A stretch of 64,000 bases of DNA from the NCBI GenBank assembly GCA_027592325.1, contig JAQCKO010000003.1, positions 941 through 64,940 of the forward strand, read 5' to 3'. Position numbers and translations under genes: made by a program. This document shows, in pieces, positions 6,467 to 21,575 of the stretch (positions are counted from its first letter, which is position 1; the number at the start of each line of letters is the position of its first letter). The notes beneath the pieces were generated by a model. That model worked only from the letters and a program-made list of their open reading frames with translations. It was not told the DNA's origin and did no database searches. Origin of the DNA: a bacterium. GTDB taxonomy: Bacteria; Patescibacteriota; Patescibacteriia; UBA9934.

Positions 6467-7061
6467 GATTCATGTGAGTATGTTACACCTCGATTGACGA
6501 GCTGTGTAGTTCGCGAGACGTTTTAGAGGAGGGGGTTAGATGAAACTTCAAAACGCCTCGTATTGCATGAAGACACGAACGGCTACCTATTAGGTGACGA
6601 GCCACGGCACATCTGCACAGACGAATCACGGTACACTAGTCGTGACGTTAGCGTTTAGCGCAGTGATGTCAGATATCATGTGTGCATTGGCAATCGCACA
6701 CGATGTAGTGCAAGAGGGGGAGGTTAATCTGGAGAGCGACAGATCCGGATGATCAAGTGAGACATGTTGTTTTGCGTGGGAGCAAGTGGGATTGTTGATG
6801 CGTCAGCTTGAGACGAGTGCCCAAAAGGAGGAATTTTGGCGAATTGTTTCAGATGCGCATCATCGCATTGTCTCGGAAGTCTTTGCTCAAGAGCTTATGC
6901 GCCGCCATTTGGTAGTAGCTCTTCCCCATGTGTGACCACCTTCTTTGTGGGGGTGGTCTTGAATATTTCTCAACGATCTGTTATCATTCTGTCACAATTT
7001 TCTGTTCAAAAGACTCGTTGTACAAATAGTCCGCACAGGAAATAAAATGAAAGAACAACCT

Positions 7062-7136
7062 TCCGGGGTAGCTCAGTGGCAGAGCAGTTGGCTGTTAACC
7101 AATTGGTCGTGGGTTCGAATCCCACCCCCGGAGCCA
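7062..7136 (+). tRNA. tRNA-Asn (anticodon GTT)
   Basis: Hand-folded cloverleaf. Acceptor stem TCCGGGG/CCCCGGA, D arm GCTC-AGTGGCA-GAGC and anticodon loop CTGTTAA. T arm GTGGG-TTCGAAT-CCCAC, discriminator G and encoded CCA. Confidence 0.9.
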
Positions 7137-7145
7137 TCAAAGAAT

Positions 7146-7170
7146 CTCAGTTTTACTGAGGTTTTTTGTT
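7146..7170 (+). terminator. intrinsic terminator after tRNA-Asn
   Basis: Hairpin CTCAG-TTTTA-CTGAG followed by TTTTTTGTTT. Confidence 0.7.
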
Positions 7171-7215
7171 TGACCCAAGTGGGATTTCAGAACCCTAGTG
7201 TGATAACATGGCTCC
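7169..7215 (+). promoter_or_regulatory. conserved junction block P1 (TTTGACCCAAGTGGGAYKTCRGAACC...TGATAA), candidate promoter/leader
   Basis: Near-identical 40-45 nt blocks at 7169-7215, 13069-13110, 14152-14193, 21636-21677 and 22420-22447. Each lies between a junction terminator and the next cassette gene and contains the -35-like TTGACC. Confidence 0.4.
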
Positions 7216-7217
7216 AT

Positions 7218-7928
7218 ATGTTTTTAGAAGAAATGAAAACAACAGATTTTGAGGAAGGCAAAAAGTACATTTTTGTCATTCCAACGGGATCTACGGAACA
7301 ACATGGACCGTTCCTACCGCTTGGCACGGATTCTTACATTCAGGATGCAATTATCAATGGGGCCGAGAAACAGCTGACTGAGTTTATCTTTCTTCCAACG
7401 ATGCGGATTACTTGCTCAGAGGAACATGAAGGTTTTGCGGGGTCTGTTTGGATTTCACTCGATACTATGGAGCGTGTAATGAACGATATCTGTAAGTCGC
7501 TAGAGCCTTACGCTAAGAAGTTCATTTTCACTACGGCTCACGGTGGAAATATTGAGGTATTAAAGCGATTTGTTGAAAAGCATAAAAATGATTTTCCTAA
7601 TATCGAACTTCATTACGTAGACCCTGATAACGAAGAGATCGAGGAGAAGACGGTTGAATTGATTGGCGGACCAGTGGAAGATCATGCTGGTAACACGGAA
7701 ATCTCTATTATGCTTGGAATTCGTAACGACCTAACAATGATCCCAACTAAAGATTACCCGAAAAAGATTCTTGATAATGCTTTCAAAACAAATCGCTTGA
7801 AAGATTTCTCAGAAGACGGGATTGCCGATAACCATCCAGATTGGGTAATAGATGAAAGCCACGGAGAAAAGATACTGGACTGGATTGTTGAAGATTTTGT
7901 CGACTCATTGAAGAAGATTGTAAGCTAG
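7218..7928 (+). CDS. creatininase-family amidohydrolase
   Basis: IPTGSTEQHGPFLPLGTD motif. Start trimmed to the first ATG (7218) downstream of the tRNA, because the raw ORF 7047-7928 overlaps the tRNA. Confidence 0.7.
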   Translation: MFLEEMKTTDFEEGKKYIFVIPTGSTEQHGPFLPLGTDSYIQDAIINGAEKQLTEFIFLPTMRITCSEEHEGFAGSVWISLDTMERVMNDICKSLEPYAKKFIFTTAHGGNIEVLKRFVEKHKNDFPNIELHYVDPDNEEIEEKTVELIGGPVEDHAGNTEISIMLGIRNDLTMIPTKDYPKKILDNAFKTNRLKDFSEDGIADNHPDWVIDESHGEKILDWIVEDFVDSLKKIVS

Positions 7929-8668
7929 ATAAATTGATCCATCGCCATCAGGGACTCCAAGTTTGCCGTTCTGAATCCGTCCAGTATTCGGAGCCAATAA
8001 AAATTCACCGTCTTGTGCGGTGGATTTTTATTGGCTCTGGAGGGGGTAGGACAGTCCTGAGGACTGTCCGTGGGATGAGAACGGCCGGAGGCATATGTCG
8101 TCAGCAGACGACATGCCGAGGCCTGGTCCTGAGTGCGGTTTTCTGCAGAAAACCGACACGACGGCGAATCCCACCCCCGGAGCCAGGCTAGACGATCAGC
8201 ATCAAAGCTGATCGTTTTGCTTTTCTGAGGTATGTAATCAGATAGATTTAGTACCAAATTAAAAGGACTTCTTAATTCTAACAGTAATTTGCGATCCTTT
8301 AATTCTGGGTTCTGAACGAGGAAATTAATGAATTGGCGTTTTTCGTGTAATTCAGCACCTTCGAATATTTCTCGAGAACGACGAGCCACGGAAAGTACCG
8401 TGGCTACTGTCGTTTTGTAGTCATGATCTGCTTGAGTATGTTCTCCAAGCTCTATATTTAGACGCTGAAGACGATCTGTAAGCTCTTGCAGTTTTGTGTC
8501 GTAATCCTCCTTAGTAATCCGCACATTGAACTGGACACAACTTCGAAGGATTGGGATGGGTGTGTAGAAACGATTCTCAAACTGCTCGACGATGAGAGAA
8601 ACTGAACCATCAACAGCTTCAGCTCTGGCTACTTCACTGTTCTGAATGCGTCCAGTATCGGGAACCAA
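7925..8668 (-). CDS. hypothetical protein, probably a truncated or decaying gene
   Basis: Only ORF between R0 and R2. The N-terminal 150 codons (8230-8668) look protein-like. The C-terminal 95 codons read through the terminator, R0, the structured segment and R1 and are Pro/Ser/Arg-rich (likely non-coding read-through). A 25-codon homologous remnant (HEESQFINALVQTP) sits at 14954-15039. Confidence 0.3.
   Translation of the reverse strand: MVPDTGRIQNSEVARAEAVDGSVSLIVEQFENRFYTPIPILRSCVQFNVRITKEDYDTKLQELTDRLQRLNIELGEHTQADHDYKTTVATVLSVARRSREIFEGAELHEKRQFINFLVQNPELKDRKLLLELRSPFNLVLNLSDYIPQKSKTISFDADRLAWLRGWDSPSCRFSAENRTQDQASACRLLTTYASGRSHPTDSPQDCPTPSRANKNPPHKTVNFYWLRILDGFRTANLESLMAMDQFI
7968..7996 (+). 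repeat. junction repeat R1 (GTTCTGAATCCGTCCAGTATTCGGAGCCA), tRNA 3'-end-like
   Basis: 29-nt core ending in CGGAGCCA. Its last 6 nt begin a 47-nt near-perfect inverted repeat (7991-8037). Confidence 0.75.
7991..8037 (+). repeat. long hairpin GAGCCAATAAAAATTCACCG-TCTTGTG-CGGTGGATTTTTATTGGCTC (class B junction hairpin)
   Basis: 20-nt arms with one mismatch. The same hairpin core recurs at 9849-9885 after R3. Confidence 0.7.
8038..8164 (+). other. GC-rich highly structured segment with three perfect hairpins (candidate ncRNA or recombination-site arm)
   Basis: Hairpins GGACAGTCC-TGA-GGACTGTCC, ATGTCGTC-AGCA-GACGACAT with extended flanking pairing, and CGGTTTTCTG/CAGAAAACCG. GC content is well above the flanks, with an exact tRNA 3'-end copy at its 3' edge. 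Confidence 0.4.
8165..8185 (+). repeat. R0: exact 21-nt direct repeat of tRNA-Asn 3' end (CGAATCCCACCCCCGGAGCCA = 7116-7136)
   Basis: Perfect identity to the tRNA 3' end. Candidate att core delimiting a 1.07-kb unit. Confidence 0.85.
8192..8226 (+). terminator. intrinsic terminator (ACGATCAGC-ATCAAA-GCTGATCGT plus T-run)
   Basis: 9-bp perfect stem followed by TTTGCTTTTCT. A similar GACGATCAG hairpin follows R7 at 14846-14880. Confidence 0.65.
8639..8667 (+). repeat. junction repeat R2 (degenerate, ends GGGAACCA)
   Basis: GTTCTGAATGCGTCCAGTATCGGGAACCA followed by a degenerate class B hairpin (GCGGCGGATTTTT). Confidence 0.55.
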
Positions 8669-8724
8669 TAATCCTTCGCTAATTTCAGCGGCGGATTTTT
8701 GATACCCAAATAAAATTCAGAACC

Positions 8725-9819
8725 GTGGTAAAATCTTCGGGTGTGAAATTTGAACATAGAAGAACAGTCGAATATGTAGAATCGGCTAAAGTCAGTTTAG
8801 AAGATTTTGATGTTGGAGATACTCTAGAGGCATTGGCGGGTATTGCGTTAAAAGACGAAACTCAAAAGCGCGTATTGGAACTTCAAGAAAAAAAAAGGGG
8901 GGTAATGGAGTGGTTGAAAAATCAACGTACCAAAATTAACAATGGTGAAAAGATAGAATTGCATGAACAGCATTCGAAAATTTTCCATGTTGTTTATCAA
9001 GATGGCGCTTTCATCGGGAGTGACGGTGAACAAAGCTTTGATTTAACATTAGGCGAGTTGTTAACAGATGCATCTTGGGGCATTGATTATGATCTTGACA
9101 TGGATTCGGTGCCTTCAGATATAGCAAAGCAATATATTTTATCTAGAGCTAAAAGGATGCTGCGTGAATTGCTAAACAGGCAACTGGTTTTAATCGAATT
9201 GGATGTAAATAACGACGATCAGCAGAAGAAGTCCTTTTCAGCTGTTGGTGAAAGACAGAAGCAAGGAAGAGAGCTGATAGCTCAAGATCAGGGTTTTATT
9301 GCTGAAGAGATGATATTAAATTTAATAAAAAAACTAGTCATAGATCACGATTTGCCAGTTGAAATAGAGGAAGTAGATGTTTATGACGATGTGGTTAATA
9401 AAGTTGATTATGTTATCAGGAGAACTGATCGTAAAAGAGGGGTTGAAATTGATGTGATTGATGAAGAAAGTCCTGAACGGATAGGTGTTCAGTTCACACT
9501 CATGTTTCGAAAGGCCTCTATGGTTGGTAAGCGTAAAACAGTCTTACAGGCATTGAGAAGAGGTATGGTAGGTGAACTGCAAGATTTACAGGATATTGCT
9601 GTAGTAAATGTTCACCCAGCATATATAAAGCGATCAGTTAACACATGGAAAAAAACTAGAAAACCTGGCGGGCCGGACAATTGTTTAGAGGTAGCTGCTA
9701 AGGTAGATTTAGTTCAAAAAATGCTAAAAGATTTATTTTCAGAAAATGAAATAGATGAAATTGTAAGTGAAGTTTACGGCGTTGATAGAAATAAAACTAA
9801 AATTCGCAGAACCTATTAA
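8725..9819 (+). CDS. hypothetical protein
   Basis: 364-aa ORF filling cassette R2-R3, with no recognisable motifs. Confidence 0.5.
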   Translation: MVKSSGVKFEHRRTVEYVESAKVSLEDFDVGDTLEALAGIALKDETQKRVLELQEKKRGVMEWLKNQRTKINNGEKIELHEQHSKIFHVVYQDGAFIGSDGEQSFDLTLGELLTDASWGIDYDLDMDSVPSDIAKQYILSRAKRMLRELLNRQLVLIELDVNNDDQQKKSFSAVGERQKQGRELIAQDQGFIAEEMILNLIKKLVIDHDLPVEIEEVDVYDDVVNKVDYVIRRTDRKRGVEIDVIDEESPERIGVQFTLMFRKASMVGKRKTVLQALRRGMVGELQDLQDIAVVNVHPAYIKRSVNTWKKTRKPGGPDNCLEVAAKVDLVQKMLKDLFSENEIDEIVSEVYGVDRNKTKIRRTY

Positions 9820-9848
9820 GTTCTAACATCCTCCACGATGCGGAGCCA
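9820..9848 (+). repeat. junction repeat R3 (GTTCTAACATCCTCCACGATGCGGAGCCA)
   Basis: Followed by the class B hairpin AAAAATTCACCG-TCTTGTG-CGGTGGATTTTT (9849-9885). Confidence 0.75.
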
Positions 9849-9936
9849 ATAAAAATTCACCGTCTTGTGCGGTGGATTTTTGTATTTCCAATCACCCTCC
9901 CAGATTTCTTGCCGAAATGATACACTTGGTCACAAT

Positions 9937-10761
9937 ATGAACGTGAAAGAATTTTATAAACATTCATCAAAGGAAATCGTCGATCTATTTCGTGATTTTA
10001 TTGAAAAAGATTGTTTCAGCCAATATCCTGAATTAAAGGATAAGTTGAGCTTCGTGCTCACGGGATCCGTACCCTCGAATCACTATGATCAATATAGTGA
10101 TATTGATTGTAATTTGTTATTCGAGAACGAATCTGATCTGGCCATGATTAAGGAAGCTGTAAAAAAGTATAAGATGAGCTTACGGGAACAAAAACTTCCG
10201 ATTCAGCTTCACTCCCCAATGACGTTTAGCGAATTGGAAAACTCCTTGACCAATTGGAATCATGATTCGGCTTTACGTGAACACGCGGCAGCACTCGTCA
10301 TTTTTGACCCACACGATCGCTATAAAACAATTCAATCGCGGATCAAATGGTATCCAAAAGAAGTATTACAAGAAAAGATTCAATGGCTTTTTGCCGAATC
10401 TATTTTTGCGTTTGAAGATCGTCTTGTTGTGGCCGTGGAACGTGAAAATGATCTCTATGTACGCTCGTTGAGTTTACAGATAGTGAAACTGCTAGCCAAC
10501 GCACTCATCATGATAAATGACCGCTATCCTGTATTTGAAAAGCATATATATTTTAATCTCCGTGATCTCGGTGAAAATGAGTTTTGTGCTCAAATCGACT
10601 TGCTCCTGAGCATGACCGAGACAGATGAAATCCAAAGGTCTATTACTGATATCATCGATACCGTGGAACAACGCCTTATTAAAGCTGGTTTTATGGAAAA
10701 ACAGCCCAAAGAGCATTGGATACAGCTTCGTCCTAAGTTTCAGATTGAAGGATGCGCCTAG
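9937..10761 (+). CDS. polymerase-beta-superfamily nucleotidyltransferase domain protein
   Basis: LTGS-x10-DID matches the hG[GS]-x9-13-DhD minimal nucleotidyltransferase signature. Helical C-terminal domain. Start trimmed to ATG 9937. Confidence 0.6.
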   Translation: MNVKEFYKHSSKEIVDLFRDFIEKDCFSQYPELKDKLSFVLTGSVPSNHYDQYSDIDCNLLFENESDLAMIKEAVKKYKMSLREQKLPIQLHSPMTFSELENSLTNWNHDSALREHAAALVIFDPHDRYKTIQSRIKWYPKEVLQEKIQWLFAESIFAFEDRLVVAVERENDLYVRSLSLQIVKLLANALIMINDRYPVFEKHIYFNLRDLGENEFCAQIDLLLSMTETDEIQRSITDIIDTVEQRLIKAGFMEKQPKEHWIQLRPKFQIEGCA

Positions 10762-10841
10762 AAGGATTCAATGAATTTTGCAAATGTTCCATGCTGACTT
10801 AGACCTGGTATACTCATTCAAACCTCACAAAGAGTTTTTTT

Positions 10842-11861
10842 ATGGCAGAAAGACCAACGTTTAATCCTGAAATCAGAGAACTGCATGAAGGTGTAAAGAA
10901 GTTTGAAATCGTCGATGTAGAAGGTAATCGGTTAGGAGTTTGTGAATCTGTATTTGAAAAACACCCAACCAATGAACAGTACAAAGTTTTGCAGAGATGT
11001 GAACTTACTGCTGCAAACGGTGAAAAAATTGACTTGCTTCAGATGCCTGATGGTGAAAGAAGCAATGTCGAGGTTTTATTTGTCGACAATCCACGGATTG
11101 AAGAACAATATCTGATGCGTGTTGGTACCGTAGTTTTAGTTAATCGAGACATGACCTCCATTGATGACATTGCCGTATTATTGCATGAGATGGGACATGA
11201 CGAGCAGGCTCGCTCTTCTGATGGTTTCTCAGAAGTTTACAATGCGATGCACATTAACAACGACCTGCCATATGATGATTTTTCACGAGCGTTTCGTGAT
11301 TTAAGCGACAGTTTTCGAGTTCTTTATGCTTATATTGAAATGGTAGATCGTGATGTACCAATGCACGTTAAGCTTGATCAGGATTTAGAAGAAGAAATTA
11401 GAAATGCCGTAGCGGAATTTAAGCGTTTACATTTAGACGATGCAAAAGAATCTGATCGCATTAAAAAAGAAGTTGGTAGGGGTTATCTAGAGTGGTCCGA
11501 GGATGAGGAGCGTTATAACAAAGATCACCTAGCTGGGATTCGGGCCTTATCGTCCTCTACAGAGAGTGTTCTAAAAAAACATCCAAAGCTTCGTGGCATT
11601 TACACCGATATGGTTTTATGGCAGGAACGGGATGCTTCTGACCGAGCACGCGCTCGACTGAACGTTTTTGTCGAACAGGGAATGAATCTTGTTGACGCAA
11701 AGTTTCCTCTCACCGATCGAGAAATAGCTATGGCTGAAAATAACTTAACGCACAAATCGAGAAGGATGCAGGAGGCAACGAGGGCCTATCTTGAAGATCG
11801 AGACAAGACGATCGATGAGCGGCTTAAATTCTCGTATCAAACGTATGAATGTACGCATTGA
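10842..11861 (+). CDS. hypothetical protein with HExxH (zincin-like) motif, possible metallopeptidase
   Basis: LLHEMGHDEQ motif. Shares a cassette with the nucleotidyltransferase, with no junction repeat between them. Confidence 0.45.
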   Translation: MAERPTFNPEIRELHEGVKKFEIVDVEGNRLGVCESVFEKHPTNEQYKVLQRCELTAANGEKIDLLQMPDGERSNVEVLFVDNPRIEEQYLMRVGTVVLVNRDMTSIDDIAVLLHEMGHDEQARSSDGFSEVYNAMHINNDLPYDDFSRAFRDLSDSFRVLYAYIEMVDRDVPMHVKLDQDLEEEIRNAVAEFKRLHLDDAKESDRIKKEVGRGYLEWSEDEERYNKDHLAGIRALSSSTESVLKKHPKLRGIYTDMVLWQERDASDRARARLNVFVEQGMNLVDAKFPLTDREIAMAENNLTHKSRRMQEATRAYLEDRDKTIDERLKFSYQTYECTH

Positions 11862-11884
11862 TTGGTGAATTCTGTTCAACGGCA

Positions 11885-11913
11885 GTTCTAACATCCTCCA
11901 CGATGCGGAGCCA
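11885..11913 (+). repeat. junction repeat R4 (identical core to R3/R5)
   Basis: GTTCTAACATCCTCCACGATGCGGAGCCA followed by a class A terminator (ACCGG-TTTCA-CTGGT plus T-run). Confidence 0.75.
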
Positions 11914-12014
11914 ACAAAAACATACCGGTTTCACTGGTGTTTTTTTGTTTGTTTCAAAGCTATCTAGAGTGGGAATTGAACTTTCTTGATATAATGAATC
12001 TAGAAGATTGAATT

Positions 12015-13001
12015 ATGCGCAAATCATTCGATATTCCTCAACGCAGGTCAGATGTTGAGAAGCCCCCTGCACCAGAACTTAGGTTCTTCTTCTCTGCTCA
12101 CGGACAAATTCAAGACTATGAAGGTATCCAAGAAGCTTTACAGGATGCTGATGTTTTTGTTGTAGAAGCACACGGATGGAACGAAGATGATCTAAGGTAT
12201 CTTCAAGAAATTTCAGATGGAACCAAGGTTCCGAGGCACATAGAGGAAAAACGTGAACCACAAGATGTTATTGAATATGAGGAAGACTTGCTTTATAAAA
12301 CTGGTAAACGGATTGAAATCGTTGACGTACCCGAAGGCCACGAATTAGACAAAGAAGACGATGGAACAGCTGGGATATCTGAGGCTGCGCGCACTTTTAT
12401 TGCTCGTGGAGATCTAGAATCTGCACTTGCAGCGCTAGATACGGCAGTAAAGATGAATGCGGAGTACATTAGAAAAAAAGATGAGTATATTGAAGGTCAA
12501 TTGGATGCTCTTTTGAAGAAGCTTTCAATTGAGGATCCAAATGCGAAAGTGTTGGTTCAGATAGGATCGACACATACAGGCATTTCGCACGACTTAAGAA
12601 GAGAAGGAATAGCAAGTCGAGTACGTAATAGTGTAAAATTCGATTTTAAAGATGAGCTTGTTCGTTCTTATCGATTCAAAAAATCTCCTGAGAGGGATCT
12701 ATTAATAAAAGTCTTGATTGAAGAGGTGTTAAGAACAAGTTTTCAAGATCAACTCAGAAAGGTGCCATATATTCAGCGAGTCGATTTTTTCAGAAAGCAT
12801 TTAGCAAATATAACTGAGGAACAGATTCAAAATTTGGGCTATAAGACAGAGTCTAAGTTCTTTGATCGAGTGATTATGCGCTATGAGAATTACACACCAG
12901 AGCTTAAGAGACAGATTTTGACTGAATCATGGCAAGTTGTCTTCGGGGCGGCTATCGATGAAAGTATTGCAAAGTTAGTAAATCAGCAGCATGATCGATG
13001 A
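12015..13001 (+). CDS. hypothetical protein
   Basis: 328-aa ORF in cassette R4-R5, with no recognisable motifs. Confidence 0.5.
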   Translation: MRKSFDIPQRRSDVEKPPAPELRFFFSAHGQIQDYEGIQEALQDADVFVVEAHGWNEDDLRYLQEISDGTKVPRHIEEKREPQDVIEYEEDLLYKTGKRIEIVDVPEGHELDKEDDGTAGISEAARTFIARGDLESALAALDTAVKMNAEYIRKKDEYIEGQLDALLKKLSIEDPNAKVLVQIGSTHTGISHDLRREGIASRVRNSVKFDFKDELVRSYRFKKSPERDLLIKVLIEEVLRTSFQDQLRKVPYIQRVDFFRKHLANITEEQIQNLGYKTESKFFDRVIMRYENYTPELKRQILTESWQVVFGAAIDESIAKLVNQQHDR

Positions 13002-13006
13002 TCTTG

Positions 13007-13035
13007 GTTCTAACATCCTCCACGATGCGGAGCCA
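13007..13035 (+). repeat. junction repeat R5
   Basis: Identical 29-mer to R3/R4. Followed by a class A terminator (CATCGG-GTTTA-CTGGTG plus T8) and conserved block P2 (13069-13110). Confidence 0.8.
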
Positions 13036-13118
13036 GCAAAAGACATCGGGTTTACTGGTGTTTTTTTTGTTTGACCCAAATGGGACTTCGGAACAAGAAT
13101 TTGATAAACTGGTTTTAT

Positions 13119-14009
13119 ATGAAAAATGCATTCAACCTGCAAATCCCTGAGATGAAAGACATTCTGGCAGATCCTGAGATAGAGAAGTCCGTATCGGACA
13201 TGTTGGGAACCGTTTTGAGTTACCTCGGAATTCCAGACGACGCAACTGGGCGTGTAGTTGAGGAAACGTTCGACAAAACGAAAAAGGCGGTGTCAATCAC
13301 CGAATACGAGAAGAATGTACACGCTCTGCTTGATCGCGAGGGCGTAGTAGCCGCATTTCCACATAAGCTACTTGAGCGTACAAAGATCATGGTAGAAGAG
13401 CTTAGACCGTATCTTCTTGAGGGTAGCGTGCTAGATTTGGGATGTGGTGACGGCAAGACAGGGGAACTGCTAGCCGATACGCATGAAGTACAACTAGCGG
13501 ACGTGTTTGAACATCTGCACATCAAGGAAACGGGCTTGGACTTTACGTTTTTCAAGCAGGGCGAGCTTGTACCTATTGAAGATAACTCGTTCGACAATAC
13601 GTTAAGTATCTACGTATATCATCACAGCGACGATCCAATACAATCAATGCTCGAGGCGAAGCGGGTCACTCGGTCTGGTGGGAGAATCATTGTAATGGAA
13701 TCGGTTTATGGAGTGGACGAGTTGCTTCTCAGCGATGAACAGAAAGAGAAAGCTAAACCATTCTTACGCTTATCTGCGGAACAGCAGCGTTTATGTAACA
13801 TTTTTTTTGACCATTTCTGGAATCGGGTATTGATGTATAGCGATGACCCAAGCATGAAGATCAACGTTCCATTCAATTTTAATACTCCCGATGGTTGGAA
13901 GAAGATCTTTGAGGCTAATGGTCTTACACAGGAGAAAATGATTCACATGGGTATGGATCAACCAACCGTTCCTGAGTACCACACGATGCATATTTTGCGA
14001 GTAAACTAA
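13119..14009 (+). CDS. class I SAM-dependent methyltransferase
   Basis: VLDLGCGDGKTG motif I. Start trimmed to ATG 13119, after the conserved block. Confidence 0.7.
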   Translation: MKNAFNLQIPEMKDILADPEIEKSVSDMLGTVLSYLGIPDDATGRVVEETFDKTKKAVSITEYEKNVHALLDREGVVAAFPHKLLERTKIMVEELRPYLLEGSVLDLGCGDGKTGELLADTHEVQLADVFEHLHIKETGLDFTFFKQGELVPIEDNSFDNTLSIYVYHHSDDPIQSMLEAKRVTRSGGRIIVMESVYGVDELLLSDEQKEKAKPFLRLSAEQQRLCNIFFDHFWNRVLMYSDDPSMKINVPFNFNTPDGWKKIFEANGLTQEKMIHMGMDQPTVPEYHTMHILRVN

Positions 14010-14092
14010 TTTTTGAATGTGTTTACAAAAAGTTGAATGTATTCATGATAGAAACTGATCTATTGTAGGCCTTTAATGATGCCCAATGCACG

Positions 14093-14121
14093 GTTCTGAA
14101 CCCGTTCAGTATTCGGAGCCA
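14093..14121 (+). repeat. junction repeat R6 (GTTCTGAACCCGTTCAGTATTCGGAGCCA)
   Basis: Followed by the terminator TCAAAAAATCTCAGTTTTACTGAGGTTTTTTG, which is near-identical to the one after the tRNA, then block P3 (14152-14193). Confidence 0.8.
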
Positions 14122-14203
14122 TCAAAAAATCTCAGTTTTACTGAGGTTTTTTGTTTGATCCAAATGGGACTTCAGTACAAGAATTTGATAAACTAATATT
14201 TGT

Positions 14204-14776
14204 ATGAACGTTGCTGAACAAATTCAAAAGATGGTTACCGATGGGGTTTTGATCATTGCCATAGATGGTCATGGTGGTTCTGGCAAATCTTCCCTCGGAA
14301 GGATGTTGGGAGAAAAACTTCATGCCACAGTTTTCCATACCGATGATTTTGCTTCATGGGATAACCCAACCGAGTGGTACGAGGATATGATCGAGCAAGT
14401 CTTTATACCTATTGAAAATGGCGTAAAGACATTGAGTTATGAATTGTCAGTATGGGAAAAAGGTAAATCTCGTGGAAAAATTGAGAACCAGCCAGTAACG
14501 AACATTATCATCGTGGAAGGTGTCGGTGCGAGCAGAGCGGAGTTTCGCAAGTATCTCGACTTTTCCATCCTTGTCGATGTTCCTGAAAGCATTTGTATTG
14601 AAAGAGGGGTAAGTAGAGATCTTGCAGACATGCCCCACAAATCGAAAACGGAAATACGGAAACTTTGGCTTGATTGGATGGAAGAGGAGCGAAAGTATTT
14701 TTCAAAGCATCAACCCAAGGAAAATGCTGACGTTATTCTTGATGGAACAAAGTCGTTTGCTGAACAGATCGACTGA
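14204..14776 (+). CDS. P-loop nucleoside/nucleotide kinase-like protein (uridine-kinase/CPT-like fold)
   Basis: Walker A AIDGHGGSGKSS and Walker B-like IIIVEGVGA. 190 aa. Confidence 0.55.
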   Translation: MNVAEQIQKMVTDGVLIIAIDGHGGSGKSSLGRMLGEKLHATVFHTDDFASWDNPTEWYEDMIEQVFIPIENGVKTLSYELSVWEKGKSRGKIENQPVTNIIIVEGVGASRAEFRKYLDFSILVDVPESICIERGVSRDLADMPHKSKTEIRKLWLDWMEEERKYFSKHQPKENADVILDGTKSFAEQID

Positions 14777-14816
14777 CAAACTGAGCCATCATAGGCTTAA
14801 CTCCTGCCACTTGACC

Positions 14817-14845
14817 GTTCTGAACCCGTCCACGATGCGGAGCCA
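14817..14845 (+). repeat. junction repeat R7 (GTTCTGAACCCGTCCACGATGCGGAGCCA)
   Basis: Preceded by a 40-nt extension (14777-14816) that is 100% identical to 20425-20464. Followed by the terminator ACGATCAGTA-GAAA-TACTGGTCGT plus T-run. Confidence 0.8.
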
Positions 14846-15359
14846 AGAAGGACGATCAGTAGAAATACTGGTCGTTTTTCTTTGTGCTACTGAATAGTGT
14901 GCGAATTCTAGTACTGTATTCATTGGTTCTTTAGCTCAATAATGAATTCCCGTTCTTTCAATTAGGGAGTCTGAACAAGGGCATTGATGAACTGGCTTTC
15001 TTCATGCAAATCTATTGGCGAGCAGAAGGTAATATTGAGTCATGACATACTGAATACAAATGGATTGAGTTTGGCGATATAAAAAAATATCTTGGCACAA
15101 TCAAAACAATGAGATCGTGGCGATAAAATCAAAAATTCAAGACCTGACCCCTTTACGGTAGCATTGGCGAGTTGCTGCAACTCGGAGCACCTTCCACGGG
15201 TGGTCCTTACGTTTTAAAGGCGGAAATCGTGACAAAGTGAATGCACTTTTTTCTGGCAGGTCTTCTATGGTGGCTGTTTATGGGGGAGGTGCGTTTTGCA
15301 AGAGCTTGCCGCGTAAGGAGAAGAAGTGATGAGAGTTATTATTTGCTATACTTCTTCAT

Positions 15360-18293
15360 ATGGTCAGAAGATCAGAATATTATCGTATCAGTGAATTTGA
15401 GAGAGGTAGTGGTCATGAGCGTCCTCGTACTTCTATGGAGGGGGTTGAGGATTATGAGGCGCGAGAGCAGTCTTTTTTGTACGCTGCTCAAGATGAGAAG
15501 CGTGATTTGAAGGATTTGCTGAATGAGGTGCGTCCGTCGACGAGGTATTGGAGTGGCATGAAATCTCGAGTGCTAGAAAGTTTGCGGCGTATTGTTGGCG
15601 TTAAGGACTATGCGTCGATTTCTGATTCGCTTTCTAGTGAGGCTGCGCTAGACGCTTCTGGCGTTGAAGCGGAGGTTGCAGCCATGCGCGAAGATTTGGA
15701 AGTCCGAGAGCTTGAAGCTATTCTTGCGGAGTCACGTGGATCATCGCTTTTGGCGCGTCTCCGAGAGTTTTCATTTTCCTTTTTAGCAAAGCGTCAGCGA
15801 ATTTCGTTCGATGATAAGGGCGGCGAAGTGTCTAGCAAGCCAACCGCAGCGATCGAGAAGATTCAAAAAGTAGAGGAAAAGCGAGAAGAAATTTCCCTTA
15901 CCGATTGGCTTGAGGCGAAGATTCGTCGCGCTCGAGCGGAACGTATGTCCGATGGAGCTTCGGATGATGAGGTGCGGTTGGTTGATGATGAAATTTCGGA
16001 ATGGTTTCGAGCGAAGTTGGATCATTTTTTTGTGAGTGGTGGTGATCCTACGGATGAACAGGTATTGATTGATTGGCTTGAATCTGACGGTGAAGAAGTT
16101 GTTCCATCGGTTGAGACTACGGTTGTTCCGCGAGATAGCGATATATCTTCATCTGAAAAGCCGGGTGATGATGAAGAAGCGATTGAGAAAATGCTTGCGG
16201 AGATTCGCGGGCGTGAGGGGTTTTTGAATTCACTTTCTAACCATCGACGATATGTTCATGCTTTTCAATTAGCTTCGTTTTTAATGGCATCTGACGGAGG
16301 GAGTGCAGAAGCGTACAGGGATCTGGGGTCGGATATTGAAAAAGAAATGCAAGCAGGATTGGGAGAGAAGGTTGATTTAGAGGGGGTGCTTGAGGAGGAT
16401 CTTGATCATTTGGTGATGTACCGCTCGAATGAGCTTTTGAAAGCGTTTATTGAGGCGCCTGATCATCCTTTGGCTGCGAAGGGATTGCAAATGATGGCGG
16501 CGGAAAATCCATGCTATTTTGCGGGCGGATTATCTGCATTTTTTGAGCAGAGTTATTATAAAGATTTGCTTGAAGAAGTGATTTTTGCTGATCCTCGGTA
16601 TACGCTTGGCGTATTAGCTGAAGCAAAAGGGGATCAGAAGAACAGTGCTCTTGCCGATGAGGTTACCACTTTACTAAAGGATTCAACTCAGCTATCGGCG
16701 GAAACAATGCTAGTGCTGTCTTCTGAGGATATGCCAGCTTTTGAACGTGATAGGCTAGCTGATATTTTCCCTTTTTTGGTACGTGACAATGTGGGCGGTG
16801 AATTGTTTGACCAGATTCTGGGGGATGATCATGCGTATGTGGATGGACTCGTGTATGTGGCTTCGAATGATTTTGGGATTATGTCTGAGCGGGCCGACGA
16901 TACATTGAATGTAATTATGGACGAGCGCGTGGCTAGAATGAATAACTTGCAGGAGTCAGGGGACCCATATGCATCGATTAGGGGGGCGAGTGTTGATGAG
17001 CTGTATGCAACCATGGCCTATGGTAACTATGCAGCTCCGTGGATGGTCGATACGATGTTTAAAGAGCTTTCAGCGAAGATGAGGGAGGATGGCCTGGGGT
17101 CGAAGCAATTGGTTGATCGGCTGGGCGGACTTCAATTTCAGCAGTTTGCGGAAAATCTTTCAGAGGTAGGGCTATTTGATGAATTTTTGGTATTGGCCGT
17201 CGCTGAGCATCGCGGGAAGGCGCTCATTGATCGTTTTATTTCTGGGATTACTTCTGATAATGCTCGTGAATCGCTCGGACATATTACTCAGATGATTCAA
17301 CTCACCTCGCATACGGGTGTTCAATCGTATTTGAAGGAAGCTATCGAGCGCGAGTACGTGACAGCTCGTGATTCTGGCGACAAAGATCAACAGCGTGCTT
17401 ATGGAGTGCTTTCTTCTTTATTTGGCGAAGAAGCGACATGGCTTGATTCTAATGAATATATGGTTTCACCGCAGGAGAAGCTGGCCATTTCAGAGCTCTT
17501 CGATGAGAGTGGTCGCAGTGTTTCAGAGAATCGTTTTTATCAAGATATAGATAGTGATGGGCATTGGTCGTTTCTTAGCTGGGTGCAGCAACAGAAGCAG
17601 CTTGGGTTTGATGTGGAAGATCATGGAACCTTCATTCGTATGGTTAGGAAGCAAGAGAATCGTGTGGTGATTTTGTACGGAAATAAGCCTCAAGCTTCTC
17701 CACACGGTGCTACGAAACTCAAGGCCATGGATTATGCTCAATTTCAGCAGTTTAAGAAGAGTGCTGGACTAGGTGATGGGATCGCGGACGTACCGAGAGA
17801 TCGGTGGGATGACGGTATGAATGGAGTTGCTGATATGCGTGAACATATGCAAGCGAATGGCTTAGATGGGCAGATTTTGGTGCATCGTGGTCATTCGTAT
17901 TGGAATCAGTATACACTTGAAGATGTTTATGATTCGACCAGGCTTGTTATTGATGGGTCCTGCGGGGGAGCGGGGACTGTTCAGAATGCAATTCGTGCGA
18001 ATCCTGATGTGCAGATGCTTTATACTCGAGGGATTGGTTCAACGGGTATTAATGATACATTGGTTCGAAATATTAATGCGTTATTGATTGCAGGTAAAGA
18101 TATCGTTTGGAGTGATTTGCGAAGTGAAACTGGCGGAGAGTTCGGCGCCCTCTATAGCGATGCAGAGACTAGAGAAAAGGCTGAGGGATATTATGATAAG
18201 TATGTTTTTCCAGATCAGAAACAAGGTCTTTCTACGCGTGTTGTGCAACGATTTTTAGCCGGCGATACAGATCCCATTATAACAGCAGGTTAA
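15360..18293 (+). CDS. large acidic hypothetical protein (977 aa) with C-terminal His...Cys pattern whose order matches clan-CD (caspase-like) peptidases
   Basis: Long Asp/Glu-rich helical N-terminal region. C-terminal QILVHRGHSYW then RLVIDGSCGGAG, each after a hydrophobic strand, with His before Cys. Start uncertain (15360 or a downstream Met). Confidence 0.5.
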   Translation: MVRRSEYYRISEFERGSGHERPRTSMEGVEDYEAREQSFLYAAQDEKRDLKDLLNEVRPSTRYWSGMKSRVLESLRRIVGVKDYASISDSLSSEAALDASGVEAEVAAMREDLEVRELEAILAESRGSSLLARLREFSFSFLAKRQRISFDDKGGEVSSKPTAAIEKIQKVEEKREEISLTDWLEAKIRRARAERMSDGASDDEVRLVDDEISEWFRAKLDHFFVSGGDPTDEQVLIDWLESDGEEVVPSVETTVVPRDSDISSSEKPGDDEEAIEKMLAEIRGREGFLNSLSNHRRYVHAFQLASFLMASDGGSAEAYRDLGSDIEKEMQAGLGEKVDLEGVLEEDLDHLVMYRSNELLKAFIEAPDHPLAAKGLQMMAAENPCYFAGGLSAFFEQSYYKDLLEEVIFADPRYTLGVLAEAKGDQKNSALADEVTTLLKDSTQLSAETMLVLSSEDMPAFERDRLADIFPFLVRDNVGGELFDQILGDDHAYVDGLVYVASNDFGIMSERADDTLNVIMDERVARMNNLQESGDPYASIRGASVDELYATMAYGNYAAPWMVDTMFKELSAKMREDGLGSKQLVDRLGGLQFQQFAENLSEVGLFDEFLVLAVAEHRGKALIDRFISGITSDNARESLGHITQMIQLTSHTGVQSYLKEAIEREYVTARDSGDKDQQRAYGVLSSLFGEEATWLDSNEYMVSPQEKLAISELFDESGRSVSENRFYQDIDSDGHWSFLSWVQQQKQLGFDVEDHGTFIRMVRKQENRVVILYGNKPQASPHGATKLKAMDYAQFQQFKKSAGLGDGIADVPRDRWDDGMNGVADMREHMQANGLDGQILVHRGHSYWNQYTLEDVYDSTRLVIDGSCGGAGTVQNAIRANPDVQMLYTRGIGSTGINDTLVRNINALLIAGKDIVWSDLRSETGGEFGALYSDAETREKAEGYYDKYVFPDQKQGLSTRVVQRFLAGDTDPIITAG

Positions 18294-18294
18294 T

Positions 18295-18549
18295 ATGAAT
18301 AAACGATTATTTGCACTTATTCATTCATCTGATTTAGCGAAGGATGAACAGTATCGATTTCTTGGTATGCTTCGAGCTTCTTCTGAGTTAGATCAGAAAA
18401 AACTGGCGGTACTATTTTTGGAAGACCCTGCTTCTTTGCGAGCTGTTTTCGAAAATTTTGACGCGAAGCGTTCGGCGAAGGAGGACGGGAGTGTGGAGCT
18501 TTTTGAGCAGGCTATTGATAAAGAAAAGGAGTTTTTGCAAAATCTCTAA
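18295..18549 (+). CDS. small hypothetical protein (84 aa), translationally coupled to the upstream large protein
   Basis: Starts 1 nt after the stop of the 977-aa ORF. Confidence 0.45.
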   Translation: MNKRLFALIHSSDLAKDEQYRFLGMLRASSELDQKKLAVLFLEDPASLRAVFENFDAKRSAKEDGSVELFEQAIDKEKEFLQNL

Positions 18550-18618
18550 AAACGGCTCCATTAACAAGACCCCATTCGCCGTTGCGTTTGGGGTCTTTCG
18601 CCGTGAACTGAGCGTGTC

Positions 18619-19368
18619 TCAATTCGTTTGGCAGTCGTAGGCGCCGTCAGCGTTGACAGTGCAGTTCATTGGGATGATGAGGACCTCGTCGCCGACCTCT
18701 GCGACGTCGAAGAGGTAGTTCATCCAGGCACCATCCACGCCGACGCAGCCTTGGGTGTATTGCCCGGGCGTCCAGGAGTGGATGAGGATGTCTCCCCCCA
18801 TCGCGGTTTGTTGCGACGGTACCCTGCCGCTCTCGATGTGTTTCAGCATGCGTTTCATGGTGGGCTCGTCGATGACACCCTGCGTAAATGCACGCTTGAT
18901 GTCGCGACGGCGGGGGTAGTCGATGCGGAGGCCCTGCTCGAAACTCGTCTTGTACGGGTAGGCGCGATCGGAGTCGCGCGTCGCCTTCACGTGGACGACG
19001 TACTTGCCCTCGGGCGTTGACGACCAGTCGCGGCGGGTCTTTGGCCCTTCAGGCGTCTTCCCCATGTTCACGGGGATGCAGACAGTTTCGCCGCTCTGTA
19101 CCACCAGATAGCCTTCGTAATAAAGGGCGATGTGGTGGGTGTCCTTGAAGACCACCAGGGTGCGCTTCCCGGTTGTTCGACCGTCTGGTCGGTACTCGAT
19201 GGGAAGCTTGCCAAGGTCGGCGGGGCAGGGCGACTCCTTCTCGTAGGAGTAAGGGTTGTCGCTCCACGGGTGGGGAGCGGTCGCGGATGTGGTTATGATG
19301 TCGGCTGGTTTCTGAGGAGCGCAAAATGTCAGGTTTGAGGTCAGGGCGAGAATGAATGCTCGGAGCAT
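18619..19368 (-). CDS. secreted L,D-transpeptidase (YkuD-like) domain protein, compositionally foreign
   Basis: Signal peptide, then IHSWTPGQYTQGCVGV matching the LD-transpeptidase His/Cys catalytic motif. Markedly higher GC than all neighbours, and a high-GC gene typically carries long shadow ORFs on other frames (18628-19020, 19049-19324, 19132-19338). Confidence 0.6.
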   Translation of the reverse strand: MLRAFILALTSNLTFCAPQKPADIITTSATAPHPWSDNPYSYEKESPCPADLGKLPIEYRPDGRTTGKRTLVVFKDTHHIALYYEGYLVVQSGETVCIPVNMGKTPEGPKTRRDWSSTPEGKYVVHVKATRDSDRAYPYKTSFEQGLRIDYPRRRDIKRAFTQGVIDEPTMKRMLKHIESGRVPSQQTAMGGDILIHSWTPGQYTQGCVGVDGAWMNYLFDVAEVGDEVLIIPMNCTVNADGAYDCQTN

Positions 19369-19930
19369 GGCATCTCCAGCATGAAGTTAAAGAATTGACT
19401 GACCACTAACCTTAGCTTAAATGTGTTCATTTTGTCAAGGGGGTAATTGTTTTTACTCCTATCAAGCTTGTCAACAAGATTTTCCTGTTTCTCGCTTATT
19501 TTGATATAATGTGCAGCCGATCTCGCTCAGACGCTTTGCGCTCCTGATACGGAATCTGCCTATTGTGCAACTACGGATACGGCGGTCTATTATGTGACGC
19601 CAGATTGCCAGCGGTATTTTTTGAACGAGGATATTTTCATTAGTTATTATTCTTCTTGGGATGAAGTGAAGGAGAATGAGGAACTTTCCTTTATGCCTTC
19701 GGGGCCAAATTATCCCCTTTAATTTGGAACGCCTGTAAAGACGGTGAACGATCCCAAGGTCTGCATATTACTCCTTCCACTTTTGCCACTACCAGTATTT
19801 TTTTGTATTTGTTTCTTGCTTTGAAGAAAAATTACAAAATCAACTGGGTATTACTGTGGCTATTGTAGATATGGATGAGTATTGGCTAGACCGAGAATCC
19901 GATGCCTTCAAAGATGGCCGCGATCAGGAA

Positions 19931-19958
19931 CAGCTCGAATCCATGTGATGCGGAGCCA
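19931..19958 (+). repeat. junction repeat R8 (short variant ...GCTCGAATCCATGTGATGCGGAGCCA)
   Basis: Ends CGGAGCCA. Followed by the class C hairpin GGGACTCGAAC-TATCCAAT-GTTCGAG plus T-run (19961-19998). Confidence 0.65.
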
Positions 19959-20024
19959 ATGGGACTCGAACTATCCAATGTTCGAGTTTTGTTTTATGCT
20001 AGAGAAAAATTCGGTTCTAATTAT

Positions 20025-20432
20025 ATGAATCATATAGCAACAGGGATATTGATAGACAAGGATGGAAAACTCTTGGCCTATCTACGAGATGACAAACCGA
20101 GCATTCCGTTTCCTAATCATTGGGATCTTTTTGGTGGATACGTAGAAGATGGGGAAACGAATGAAGAAGCTCTTGTGCGTGAAGTGCAGGAAGAATTGGG
20201 ATGTAACCTCAAAGATTACAGCTTCTACAAAGATTATGAGTGTTTGAAGGGCGATGACCATGTAAATGTGAAGCATGTTTTTGTTGCGCACATTGATGCA
20301 AAAGCGGATGACCTGACTTTATATGAGGGTCAAGAGCTGCGTGGTATTCCACTTGAAGAAATACATGAGTACAAATGGGCAAACATTTTGGGAGTGATTT
20401 TGGATGACTTCGTAAAAGATCAAGCAAACTGA
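20025..20432 (+). CDS. NUDIX hydrolase
   Basis: Nudix box GGYVEDGETNEEALVREVQEELG. Start trimmed to ATG 20025, downstream of the junction hairpin. Confidence 0.75.
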   Translation: MNHIATGILIDKDGKLLAYLRDDKPSIPFPNHWDLFGGYVEDGETNEEALVREVQEELGCNLKDYSFYKDYECLKGDDHVNVKHVFVAHIDAKADDLTLYEGQELRGIPLEEIHEYKWANILGVILDDFVKDQAN

Positions 20433-20464
20433 GCCATCATAGGCTTAACTCCTGCCACTTGACC

Positions 20465-20493
20465 GTTCTGAACCCGTTCAGTATTCGAAGACA
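20465..20493 (+). repeat. junction repeat R9 (degenerate end CGAAGACA)
   Basis: GTTCTGAACCCGTTCAGTATTCGAAGACA, preceded by a 40-nt extension identical to 14777-14816. Followed by the hairpin CCTCAGCA-GAAA-TGCTGGGG plus T-run and a GGGGTTCGAACTG motif. Confidence 0.7.
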
Positions 20494-20598
20494 ACATCGC
20501 CTCAGCAGAAATGCTGGGGGTTTGTTATTGTTTTTGGACTTCCCGAAATGGGGTTCGAACTGATATAGTCCGAGAAGTAATTTTTTAACTCTCTAGTT

Positions 20599-20784
20599 AT
20601 GAAGACAATGAAATGTGATATGTGTGAAGCGACCGCAGAAGGCGAAACATTTGAGGCGTGGATGCAGGCTCTCATGCCTCATTACATGCAAGTTCATGCA
20701 GACGTAATGAATGATCCTAAGAATGGGAAAGAGGAGCAGATGAAATGGATGGTTGAAAATAAGGCAAGGTTTGAGGCTGCCTAA
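20599..20784 (+). CDS. small hypothetical protein (61 aa, CxxC near N-terminus)
   Basis: MKCDMCEATAEG. Sole ORF in cassette R9-R10. Confidence 0.4.
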   Translation: MKTMKCDMCEATAEGETFEAWMQALMPHYMQVHADVMNDPKNGKEEQMKWMVENKARFEAA

Positions 20785-20890
20785 AATCACGCGGCAACTA
20801 TCGATTGTTATGCCGAAAAATAATCGCTAAACCAAATCTGACACTGTGAAGGTCGGGGTGCTAGCATGCCCTTTGTACTTCTGAATAGCA

Positions 20891-20918
20891 GTTTTACATC
20901 CTCTACGACGCGGAGCCA
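20891..20918 (+). repeat. junction repeat R10 (GTTTTACATCCTCTACGACGCGGAGCCA)
   Basis: Ends CGGAGCCA. Followed by the same CTCAGCAGAAATGCTGGG hairpin and CCCGAAATGGGGTTCGAACTG motif as R9. Confidence 0.7.
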
Positions 20919-21491: not shown

Positions 21492-21575
21492 CCTAATGAT
21501 GCATTTGCGTGATGAAGTGACAGCTGGTGTGCATTTTCTCCATACTCACCTTCACCTCAGCATAAACACTCCCCA

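Follow-up and report, generated by a model that had tools for sequence, protein, structure and literature searches.

A probable serine-integrase array of single-gene cassettes behind a tRNA-Asn gene in a Patescibacteria chromosome

The nearest described system to the locus considered here, about 16 kb beside a tRNA-Asn gene in a 64,000-nucleotide stretch of the chromosome of an uncultured, ultra-small member of the Patescibacteria (GenBank assembly GCA_027592325.1, contig JAQCKO010000003.1, positions 941 to 64,940; hereafter the window), is the ssrA genomic island (ssrA-GI) array of Dehalococcoides. In both, islands lie in tandem downstream of a gene for a small stable RNA, junctions repeat the 3′ end of that gene, and the Dehalococcoides arrays carry a serine recombinase of about 540 amino acids on the reverse strand beside attL, as do relatives of the present locus; about half of the ssrA islands lack an integration module and are thought to have been mobilised or accreted (PMC3146451). 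The present locus differs in its target, which is tRNA-Asn (tRNA-Gln in relatives) and not tmRNA, and in its phylum; its units are mostly 1–2 kb long with one gene, unlike the 10–20 kb islands of Dehalococcoides, and its junctions are formed by the integrase gene's own tail rather than by copies of the target end. DsiA or another small serine recombinase, ParB and Mom, which together with DsiB belong to the Dehalococcoides integration module, were not found among the open reading frames (ORFs) of the array.

The tycheposons of Prochlorococcus are also tRNA-targeted elements that stack at one tRNA, and the hypervariable island that results holds incomplete tRNAs, pieces of integrases and cargo; a minority of tycheposons use large serine recombinases (LSRs; bioRxiv 10.1101/2020.12.28.424599). 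They differ in that most use tyrosine recombinases, that they often carry replication genes and that it is partial tRNAs that form their junctions; neither junctions made of an integrase tail nor the 5-nt spacing rule, both features of the window array, has been described for them. The canonical serine integrases of phages (Listeria A118/LI, Bxb1 and phiC31; PMC3783163) share with the enzymes discussed below the resolvase, recombinase and zinc-ribbon domains, what looks like a short common core in their attachment sites, and a distal motif that lies 5 bp nearer the centre in attB than in attP. Their attP is intergenic, however, and they do not insert at an occupied site, whereas here attP lies in the integrase ORF and arrays form.

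Attachment sites within genes are familiar from two tyrosine recombinase systems. The integrase gene of SSV-type archaeal elements is split into two fragments on integration into a tRNA gene, and in the integration-dependent immunity of mycobacteriophages attP lies inside a gene of the element, where integration alters the protein made. The family described here resembles the SSV type in having attP inside the integrase ORF (unsplit in protein P0019 of locus L122, with integrated forms ending in the tRNA complement), but it is a serine recombinase and exchanges only its last ~25 codons for 13, keeping catalytic and DNA-binding domains in one ORF. Integrons are alike in outline: insertion takes place at one fixed point, the single-gene cassettes all face the same way, and genomes share cassettes that lack an integrase; the window array differs from them in its serine recombinase, its tRNA-end insertion point, its cassettes' own hairpin terminators, promoter-like boxes in places and the lack of an attC signature. 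The searchable literature on the candidate phyla radiation (CPR)/Patescibacteria, serine recombinases and tRNA yielded no account of arrays like these. Systems of this general kind are known; the Patescibacteria form, with single-gene cassettes and an integrase-tail swap, appears undescribed.

Patescibacteria genomes are usually about 1 Mb, and how accessory genes are acquired by such tiny genomes is little understood. We consider it likely that the locus is a serine-integrase array, in which LSR elements are stacked behind tRNA-Asn in a CPR chromosome, so that ~16 kb beside one tRNA would consist of accessory genes stacked one behind another and open to exchange. More than 1800 proteins belong to the driving integrase family, the majority of them found in a state of overlap with a tRNA gene; the family is a source of numerous natural attP/attB pairs whose spacing rule can be read off, and of a natural case of integration rewriting an integrase's own C-terminus, both of use for work on serine-integrase mechanism and for engineering. 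If cassettes are indeed mobilised in trans, the array would represent a second, mechanistically independent solution to the integron problem.

Integrase-gene tails at the array junctions

The heptamer GGAGCCA occurs exactly 13 times on the plus strand between 7130 and 23034, against twice on the minus strand of the entire window, and further degenerate junction copies lie at 8661 and 20487. About 15 junctions of this type, all on the plus strand and each followed by a hairpin, are spread over 7130–23040. The arm that precedes each core is 21–22 nt long and is of type A in most cases (GTTCTGAAYCCGTCCAGTATK), type B in three (GTTCTAACATCCTCCACGATG) and type C in one (GTTCGGTAAAAAGGTAATCTAG). An A-rich 9-nt spacer, a hairpin and a T-run follow the core, often with the motif TTTGACCCAAGTGGGACTTCAGAAC and a short leader before the next gene, and one or two genes, nearly all on the plus strand, lie between junctions. 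The type-A junction motif is present in 34 metagenome contigs, several of which hold 2–5 copies, and had no match in viral contigs.

Read on the minus strand, the motif and ~70 nt to its left encode W-L-R-I-[LV]-[DN]-G-F-R-T-V-[NK]-W, about ten variable residues and often M-[AV]-Q-F, a tail peptide that stops after 24–25 codons (for example WLRILDGFRTVNW...). The junction DNA varies mostly at the third position of codons, and the Arg codon CGN appears with all four bases. The frame is closed to the right of GGAGCCA, and a sequence that is coding leftward and closed rightward is the severed 3′ end of a gene. A reading of the junction as a plus-strand tRNA or minihelix was rejected, since no consistent fold was found and the minus-strand coding reading worked. 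The first-pass annotation of this DNA had counted 13 other copies related to the tRNA end and taken them for older, diverged tRNA ends. The count was right; the copies belong instead to an integrase-tail class with 5-nt longer spacing and are attP-type arms encoding the last 24–25 integrase codons, in three subtypes matching three tail types.

The gene to which these tails belong is found in related loci (given here as L numbers, and proteins as P numbers). In L089, a 519-amino-acid protein is encoded on the minus strand directly after tRNA-Asn, its last 13 codons overlapping the tRNA, and a type-A tail junction lies 11 kb downstream. This integrase (database copy P0001) carries the N-terminal motif ..ARVSTEEQ.. 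and is an LSR with resolvase, recombinase and zinc-ribbon domains. The family comprises 1829 homologues at E <= 1e-30, all from Patescibacteria where the source names the organism; among the best 120, most carry PF00239, PF07508 and PF13408 (Resolvase, Recombinase and Zn_ribbon_recom), and a few are without PF13408 or PF00239. Most members end in ..WL[RG]G[WR][DG]SNPRP.., the complement of a tRNA 3′ end. A minority have the long tail in one ORF, of type A in P0019 (C-terminus ..WLRLLDGFRTTNWKEWNMAMAQVAL), P0002 and P0009, and of type B in P0068 (..WLRIVEDVRTIIQQQNEYIYIPDL), P0033 and P0083; the window's type-B tail matches the latter three full-length integrases, and the type-C tail WLPRLPFYRT occurs also in L102. 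An RNA of the LOOT family (Rfam RF03000, 82.5 bits) was seen at 8229–8350 of L089, inside the 11-kb integrase-bearing element and upstream of its methyltransferase and helicase genes.

Comparison of the two C-terminal forms places the attachment site. In L122, which encodes P0019, the unsplit order is cargo, tail, arm, GCGGAGCCAA, hairpin and integrase; it is alike with the right junction (attR) of L089 up to GCGGAGCCAA and unrelated beyond. The block common to attL and attR is CGGAGCCA(AA), of 8–10 nt, and the breakpoint between L122 attP and L089 attR falls just past it. This breakpoint locates attP inside the integrase ORF and the crossover in the core, and the comparison means that integration swaps the last ~25 codons for 13 encoded by the tRNA. 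The same junction family and right arms follow tRNA-Gln(TTG), with the 3′ end ..CCGAGCCA, in L091 and L094/L098, and in L105 a tRNA-Trp lies nearby. The DSNL, DSNQ and GSNP variants at the C-termini of the family suggest that many different tRNAs may be targeted.

The two kinds of arm also differ in spacing. Among the tRNA ends and tail-type junctions listed from the fetched loci and the window, the distance from the start of GTTC.GAA to the AG of GGAGCC is 19 nt for every one of the 13 tRNA ends (Asn and Gln) and 24 nt for the tail-type junctions that keep the motif (49 of 50). The zinc ribbon domain (ZD) motif of the Listeria integrase occupies positions 16–24 of attP half-sites and 11–19 of attB half-sites, a 5-bp shift (PMC3783163), and the spacings of 24 and 19 nt equal these attP and attB positions exactly if AG is the central dinucleotide. 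Such a shift explains why the 13 copies resemble the tRNA end plus five extra bases.

These junctions bear on whether the array could instead be an integron, or a cluster of attC sites lacking an integron integrase (CALIN), whose attC repeats would fold as single strands and be recombined by a tyrosine recombinase of the IntI type from another locus. In favour of this, its cassettes are single-gene and co-oriented, and its junctions can be drawn as imperfect inverted repeats of ~95 nt (GTTCTGAA...TTCAGAAC) around a central hairpin. The left arm, however, can be shown to be the 3′-terminal part of a serine recombinase gene; the junctions have the form GTTCTGAAYCCGTCCAGTATKCGGAGCCA + hairpin + GTGGGAYTTCAGAAC, with no RYYYAAC/GTTRRRY boxes (the attC covariance model was not applied), and no IntI is present among the scanned window ORFs. 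Cassettes moreover have their own hairpin terminators, some with promoter-like boxes, and the array begins at a tRNA and not at an attI beside intI, which leaves the integron reading extremely improbable.

Two tRNA-type ends and the creatininase cassette

The 21-mer CGAATCCCACCCCCGGAGCCA occurs exactly twice on the plus strand of the window, at 7116–7136 (copy 1) and 8165–8185 (copy 2). No third match was found in the window even allowing 3 mismatches, and 100 dinucleotide-preserving shuffles gave none. Both the exact repeat and the abrupt end of identity at either side had been noted before and are confirmed, the latter by the flanking letters: the left edges read ..GTGGGTT/CGAAT in copy 1 and ..CGACGG/CGAAT in copy 2, and the right edges CCA/tcaaag and CCA/ggctag. 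Copy 1 forms the 3′ terminus of a canonical tRNA-Asn(GTT), which is made up of an attB-type left arm GTTCGAATCCCACCCCCGG and the core CGGAGCCA (7129–7136); read on the minus strand, this tRNA end gives WLRGWDSNPRPIG and a stop codon, the same as the C-terminus of P0008.

A hotspot of site-specific integration at the 3′ end of tRNA-Asn, as first proposed, is supported. The proposal that the 21-mers are attL and attR of one 1.07-kb unit is not: both are tRNA-type, that is attB-type, left arms and do not derive from the two sides of one event. Copy 1 is the attB-type arm of the live tRNA, and copy 2 the attB-type arm of an attL-like junction.

Between them, the single cargo gene predicted for the unit is real and encodes a creatininase-family protein (table 1). 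An attP-type left arm, GTTCTGAATCCGTCCAGTATT, lies after it at 7968–7988 and a core at 7989–7996, with GTTC 24 nt from the centre, and by this reading of the sequence the attR-type junction at 7968–7996 is the probable true right junction of the cassette. Homologues that are 80–85% identical occur in other arrays or elements (L116–L121, L123 and L124). A Candidatus Uhrbacteria genome (L116–L121) has, as the second cassette in its tRNA-Asn array, a creatininase of 85% identity, with an abhydrolase and a deacetylase cassette as neighbours, one on each side; nucleotide homology of L116 with window 7172–7997 is 78.5% over 837 nt and stops at the core. In L124, a large methyltransferase/helicase/DUF2779 element of the same type as those of L089 and L122 ends with the creatininase gene; homology covers window 7212–7996, and tail, arm and core follow. 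The homology of L123 covers window 7122–7903, including a degenerate internal tRNA end, the hairpin and the motif. The module thus has different neighbours in each of three other genomes, and element S, a folded sequence that follows it in the window, comes after the cassette in none of L116, L123 and L124. Homology that ends at 7996/7997 (L116, L124) or 7903 (L123) and never reaches 8164 or 8185 places the end of the cassette at 7996, and not at the boundary of 8185 drawn earlier. An integrase-less cassette with its own hairpin/terminator and promoter-like leader, as the first-pass annotation described it, remains, and the same cassette stands elsewhere in other genomes. Its right-arm module also follows the cores at 13036, 14122, 21605 and 22390 and tRNA-Asn or tRNA-Gln in L091, L098 and L104, and is shared with L123.

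It might still be argued that the 21-mers are attL and attR of one non-autonomous cassette of 1.05 kb (7137–8164), inserted in the style of tyrosine integrases with a crossover in the T-loop and ~21 nt of identity, the folded sequence at 8030–8164 being its attP arm. Identity does run unbroken from the T-loop (TT/CGAAT) to CCA, and the layout matches the displaced tRNA fragments of classical islands (Islander; PMC4383910). The state before insertion, tRNA followed by an integrase remnant, would correspond to an ordinary attL such as those of L089 and L092, and a degenerate internal tRNA end also precedes the creatininase cassette of L123. Against this, a complete LSR-type junction lies inside the unit at 7968–7996, and homology in L116 and L124 stops at the core, 170–190 nt before copy 2, with no S after the cassette in any homologue. 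No tyrosine recombinase of the Phage_integrase type is present among the scanned window ORFs, and copy 2 adjoins an LSR remnant. Irrespective of any creatininase gene, S with a tRNA-type end recurs beside the same integrase fragment in L113 and on the far side of junctions in L092, L091 and other loci; in L089 it directly follows the attR of a single element, which leaves no room for a separate island. A single-cassette origin of the 21-mer pair is accordingly unlikely.

In the public annotation, the creatininase gene is merged into P0121, a 293-amino-acid ORF (window 7047–7928) that starts upstream of tRNA-Asn and runs across it. P0121 is the only public record of the gene and is miscalled, the start being at 7218 or 7233. 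Exact-protein look-ups of the window creatininase (with the two alternative starts) and of HtrA found no match, because public gene calls differ.

Element S and the integrase remnant

Copy 2 closes S, a tRNA-like element that spans 8030–8185 and for which RNAfold predicts a free energy of -86.6 kcal/mol (z = -6.5; none of 200 shuffles is equally stable). In the predicted fold, the 5′ strand of S is complementary to the acceptor 3′ strand and pairs with CCCCCGGAGCC; GTGGGAT pairs with AATCCCAC of copy 2, in a helix that encloses two more hairpins, and S also holds a perfect 9-bp hairpin. Searches of Rfam, at either the gathering or the E-value threshold, returned only the tRNA in the window, and no family for the folded element in the window or 16 related loci.

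Analogues of S, each a hairpin-rich insert closed by a helix of an upstream strand with a tRNA-type 3′ end, occur after junction and hairpin in L092, L113 (twice) and L091, and partially in L089, L096 and L114. The two copies of L113 are 95% alike and flank an 8-kb unit that begins with the same integrase fragment as the one beside copy 2. The analogue in L091 imitates the local tRNA-Gln end, and in L089, a single intact element, S directly follows attR, right after the presumed original terminator of the tRNA. Alignment of seven S-like elements gave 47% column identity, which is too low for covariation analysis.

The unit had been said to contain no integrase. This holds for the creatininase cassette, but a truncated LSR gene abuts copy 2. 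The remnant is 62.7% identical to residues 399–513 of the 519-residue L089 integrase (tblastn) and comprises the C-terminal part only, with no catalytic domain in the window. It reads through the hairpin at 8190–8217 and through copy 2 (..DADRLAWLRGWDSP..), as intact relatives read through the real tRNA.

The remnant is cut at the same codon in three genomes (window 8440–8600, L102 2880–3040 and L113 2495–2655), at R-ITK-[EPQ]-DY; DNA homology starts at ATTACTAAG, and the upstream sequences are unrelated and have no consistent start codon. The shared position points to a common ancestral mini-element or a site-specific breakpoint, to judge from these three sequences. A 247-codon minus-strand ORF stays open over 7925–8668, from the LSR remnant through the 21-mer, S and the hairpin into the type-A tail of the creatininase cassette, where it finishes at the tail's stop; it may be due to chance (63 extra codons) or represent a contiguous ancestral integrase 3′ end with an insertion.

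In the view that we favour, S is resident downstream of the tRNA as a second and weaker acceptor, and an LSR element has made use of it. Copy 2 and the folded piece could also be a duplicated tRNA-Asn pseudogene with insertions, kept identical by gene conversion and without a recombination function. In its favour, TCTGGAGGGGGTAG in the 5′ part of S is similar to TCCGGGGTAG at the start of the tRNA, GTGGGAT is similar to the T-stem's 5′ strand, the fold retains acceptor-like and T-like helices, and the imitation of tRNA-Gln in L091 would fit as well. Perfect hairpins and a z of -6.5 are nevertheless not expected from random decay; the architecture recurs in at least four genomes and with two different tRNAs, which argues for an element-linked process or function, and copy 2 is in use as an integrase junction through which the LSR ORF reads. 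A pseudogene is decidedly improbable on these grounds.

Proposed growth of the array, and its cargo

In the mechanism that we propose, tRNA-Asn would be the attachment site for integrative elements driven by the LSR family. In the free (attP) form, the integrase gene would cross the attachment site on the strand opposite to the tRNA, with its last 24–25 codons (W-L-R-I-L-D-G-F-R-T-V-N-W...) beyond the crossover, which would fall within the shared core CGGAGCCA, probably at AG. On integration the integrase gene would come to abut the tRNA and gain a short C-terminus from the tRNA complement (..WLRGWDSNPRPIG and stop), and the orphaned tail with its attP-type arm would be left as an attR-type junction on the side of the element away from the tRNA. 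Insertion after insertion, with integrase genes lost afterwards or integrase-less cassettes mobilised in trans, would have led to ~14 units behind the tRNA, mostly of one or two genes and each with hairpin/terminator, promoter-like leader and tail junction. New units would be added next to the tRNA, the tRNA-proximal creatininase unit (7137–7996) presumably being the most recent. Copy 2, as a second tRNA-type arm closing S, would have been the target of an LSR element in its turn, and 350 nt from the 3′ end of that element's integrase gene are left. For the single-gene units, movement in trans and deletion from large elements are both plausible routes, since the creatininase is the terminal cargo of the large L124 element.

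Several points weigh against this account. Identity of copy 2 over 21/21 nt fits a recent event better than an old resident pseudo-site, and its counterpart in L092 has diverged from its tRNA. A full-length integrase is absent from the 64-kb window, which weakens the case for current activity in this genome. The contig that carries P0121 (L115) is the same sequence as the window and not a close relative or second strain, so that no empty site or polymorphism is seen. Recombination of attP with attL is outside the repertoire of canonical serine integrases, and insertion at an occupied tRNA therefore needs either attB-like right arms or a promiscuous recombinase of the Ccr kind. Ccr recombinases are promiscuous, and the right arms share a geometry of 9 nt followed by a hairpin, often with ATCAG at positions 13–17; an occupied site may be receptive through right arms that act as attB-type arms, or through a promiscuous enzyme. 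Mosaic breakpoints, finally, fall also just after the hairpin: core and hairpin at 7989–8029 are identical to 9841–9881 (41/41 nt), and the NTase (nucleotidyltransferase) block starts at 9874. A single crossover in the core cannot explain all shuffling, given such breakpoints, and more than one exchange process is needed.

The two junctions that share this 41-nt sequence differ in their left arms (type A and type B) and in their right neighbours (S and the NTase cassette), so the core-hairpin block itself is exchangeable. The idea that the hairpin always travels with the gene to its right, which would follow from a single crossover in the core, was also considered; it holds for the window and L123 but fails for L116 and for the NTase block and L102, and a second exchange point or homologous shuffling must consequently exist.

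More tentatively, and with more doubt than confidence, the array can be pictured as a serine-recombinase counterpart of the integron in Patescibacteria. The tRNA would be a permanent acceptor, restored by the right arm of each unit, and single-gene cassettes, reduced to a hairpin arm and an integrase-tail arm, would pass between genomes through capture, excision and exchange in trans. The C-terminus swap, from a long tail in the free form to 13 tRNA-encoded residues in the integrated one, could act as a switch of activity or directionality, and S might be a spare or decoy acceptor.

Table 1. Features of the tRNA-Asn locus and the adjoining array, in window coordinates.
Feature	Position	Strand	Basis or remark
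tRNA-Asn(GTT)	7062–7136	+	ARAGORN; Rfam tRNA 73.9 bits
Whole accretion array	7137–23080	+	left flank HtrA/tRNA-Asn; right flank DsbD-HMA (heavy-metal-associated)/Cu-ATPase
Right arm of cassette 1	7137–7217	+	A-rich 9-nt spacer, hairpin tctcagttttactgagg and T-run (7137–7171), motif, promoter-like leader
Motif GACCCAAGTGGGATTTCAGAAC	7172–7193	+	in right arm of cassette 1
Creatininase-family gene, cargo of cassette 1	7218–7928	+	PF02633, E = 2.6e-43
Integrase-gene tail remnant (WLRILDGFRTANLESLMAMDQFI and stop)	7928–7996	-	type A, apparently intact; tblastn with tail peptides; translation
Hairpin/terminator module after core	7997–8029	+	
Sequence right of core	from 7997		ataaaaattcacc / ATAAAAATTCACC
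Body of tRNA-like element S	8030–8164	+	RNAfold; closed by 21-mer copy 2
21-mer copy 2	8165–8185	+	tRNA-type (attB-type) arm and core, without the GTT of the GTTCGAA motif
Truncated LSR gene, C-terminal ~116 codons	8165–8518	-	tblastn; translation
Sequence right of 21-mer copy 2	from 8186		ggctagacgatc / GGCTAGACGATC
Degenerate tail and attP-type junction	8599–8667	-	core GGAACCA; tblastn with tail peptides
Type-B junctions (GTTCTAACATCCTCCACGATGCGGAGCCA)	9820–9848, 11885–11913, 13007–13035	+	minus strand WLRIVEDVRT
Type-A junctions bounding PRK-like kinase cassette	14093–14121, 14817–14845	+	
Degenerate junction	19930–19958	+	
Type-A junction, degenerate	20465–20493	+	
B-like junction	20890–20918	+	
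Type-C junction	21576–21604	+	WLPRLPFYRT
Type-A junctions	22361–22389, 23012–23040	+	
Array cargo			creatininase; 364-aa ORF; NTase/DUF4037 and 339-aa ORF; 328-aa ORF; methyltransferase; PRK-like kinase; 977-aa ORF with YkuD protein; NUDIX; RidA; second methyltransferase; SET-domain protein

The type-B junctions bound the NTase/DUF4037 plus 339-aa ORF cassette and the 328-aa ORF cassette, and the junctions from 19930 to 23040 bound the NUDIX, RidA, methyltransferase and SET cassettes. The junction at 14817–14845 is followed by an integrase-type right arm (window 14839–15012 resembles L102 2611–2785). Several cassettes recur elsewhere: the NTase block matches L102 over 934 nt at 92.6% identity, with other neighbours there, and the 364-aa ORF is found in L087, the 328-aa ORF in L084 and the SET protein in L088. 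Terminator-like hairpins are enriched twofold in the array (26, against 12.9 +/- 3.1 expected), and its GC content is uneven, at 0.37–0.50. The flanks hold housekeeping genes (nrdAB, xth and HtrA) on the left, and DsbD/HMA, the Cu-ATPase and many more genes beyond on the right. A scan of genome contigs for HtrA found only relatives in Patescibacteria metagenome-assembled genomes, at <=49% identity and none with tRNA-Asn beside HtrA, which indicates a CPR host with no close relative in the genome collection.

The segments at 14777–14846 and 20425–20494, 70 nt of tail plus arm, are 91% identical and stand behind the unrelated kinase and NUDIX cassettes. The motif GACCCAAGTGGGAYTTCAGAAC recurs at 7172–7193, 13073–13094, 14157–14178, 21641–21662 and 22426–22446, and in L091, L098, L108 and L109; it repeats the attP-type arm and the tRNA T-arm in inverted and slightly shorter form, and overlaps a TTGACC -35-like box. 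It is a candidate recombinase site, promoter or relic of the integrase ..FNLVL.. codons. The largest array unit holds the 977-aa ORF (15360–18293), without a Pfam hit and with a GC content of 0.46–0.50 and a GC skew of 0.26–0.34, and the YkuD L,D-transpeptidase gene that follows is oppositely oriented. Outside the array, six tandem copies of a 9-nt CAGATCGTT-like unit lie at 32661–32715, between two ABC-F-type ATPase genes.

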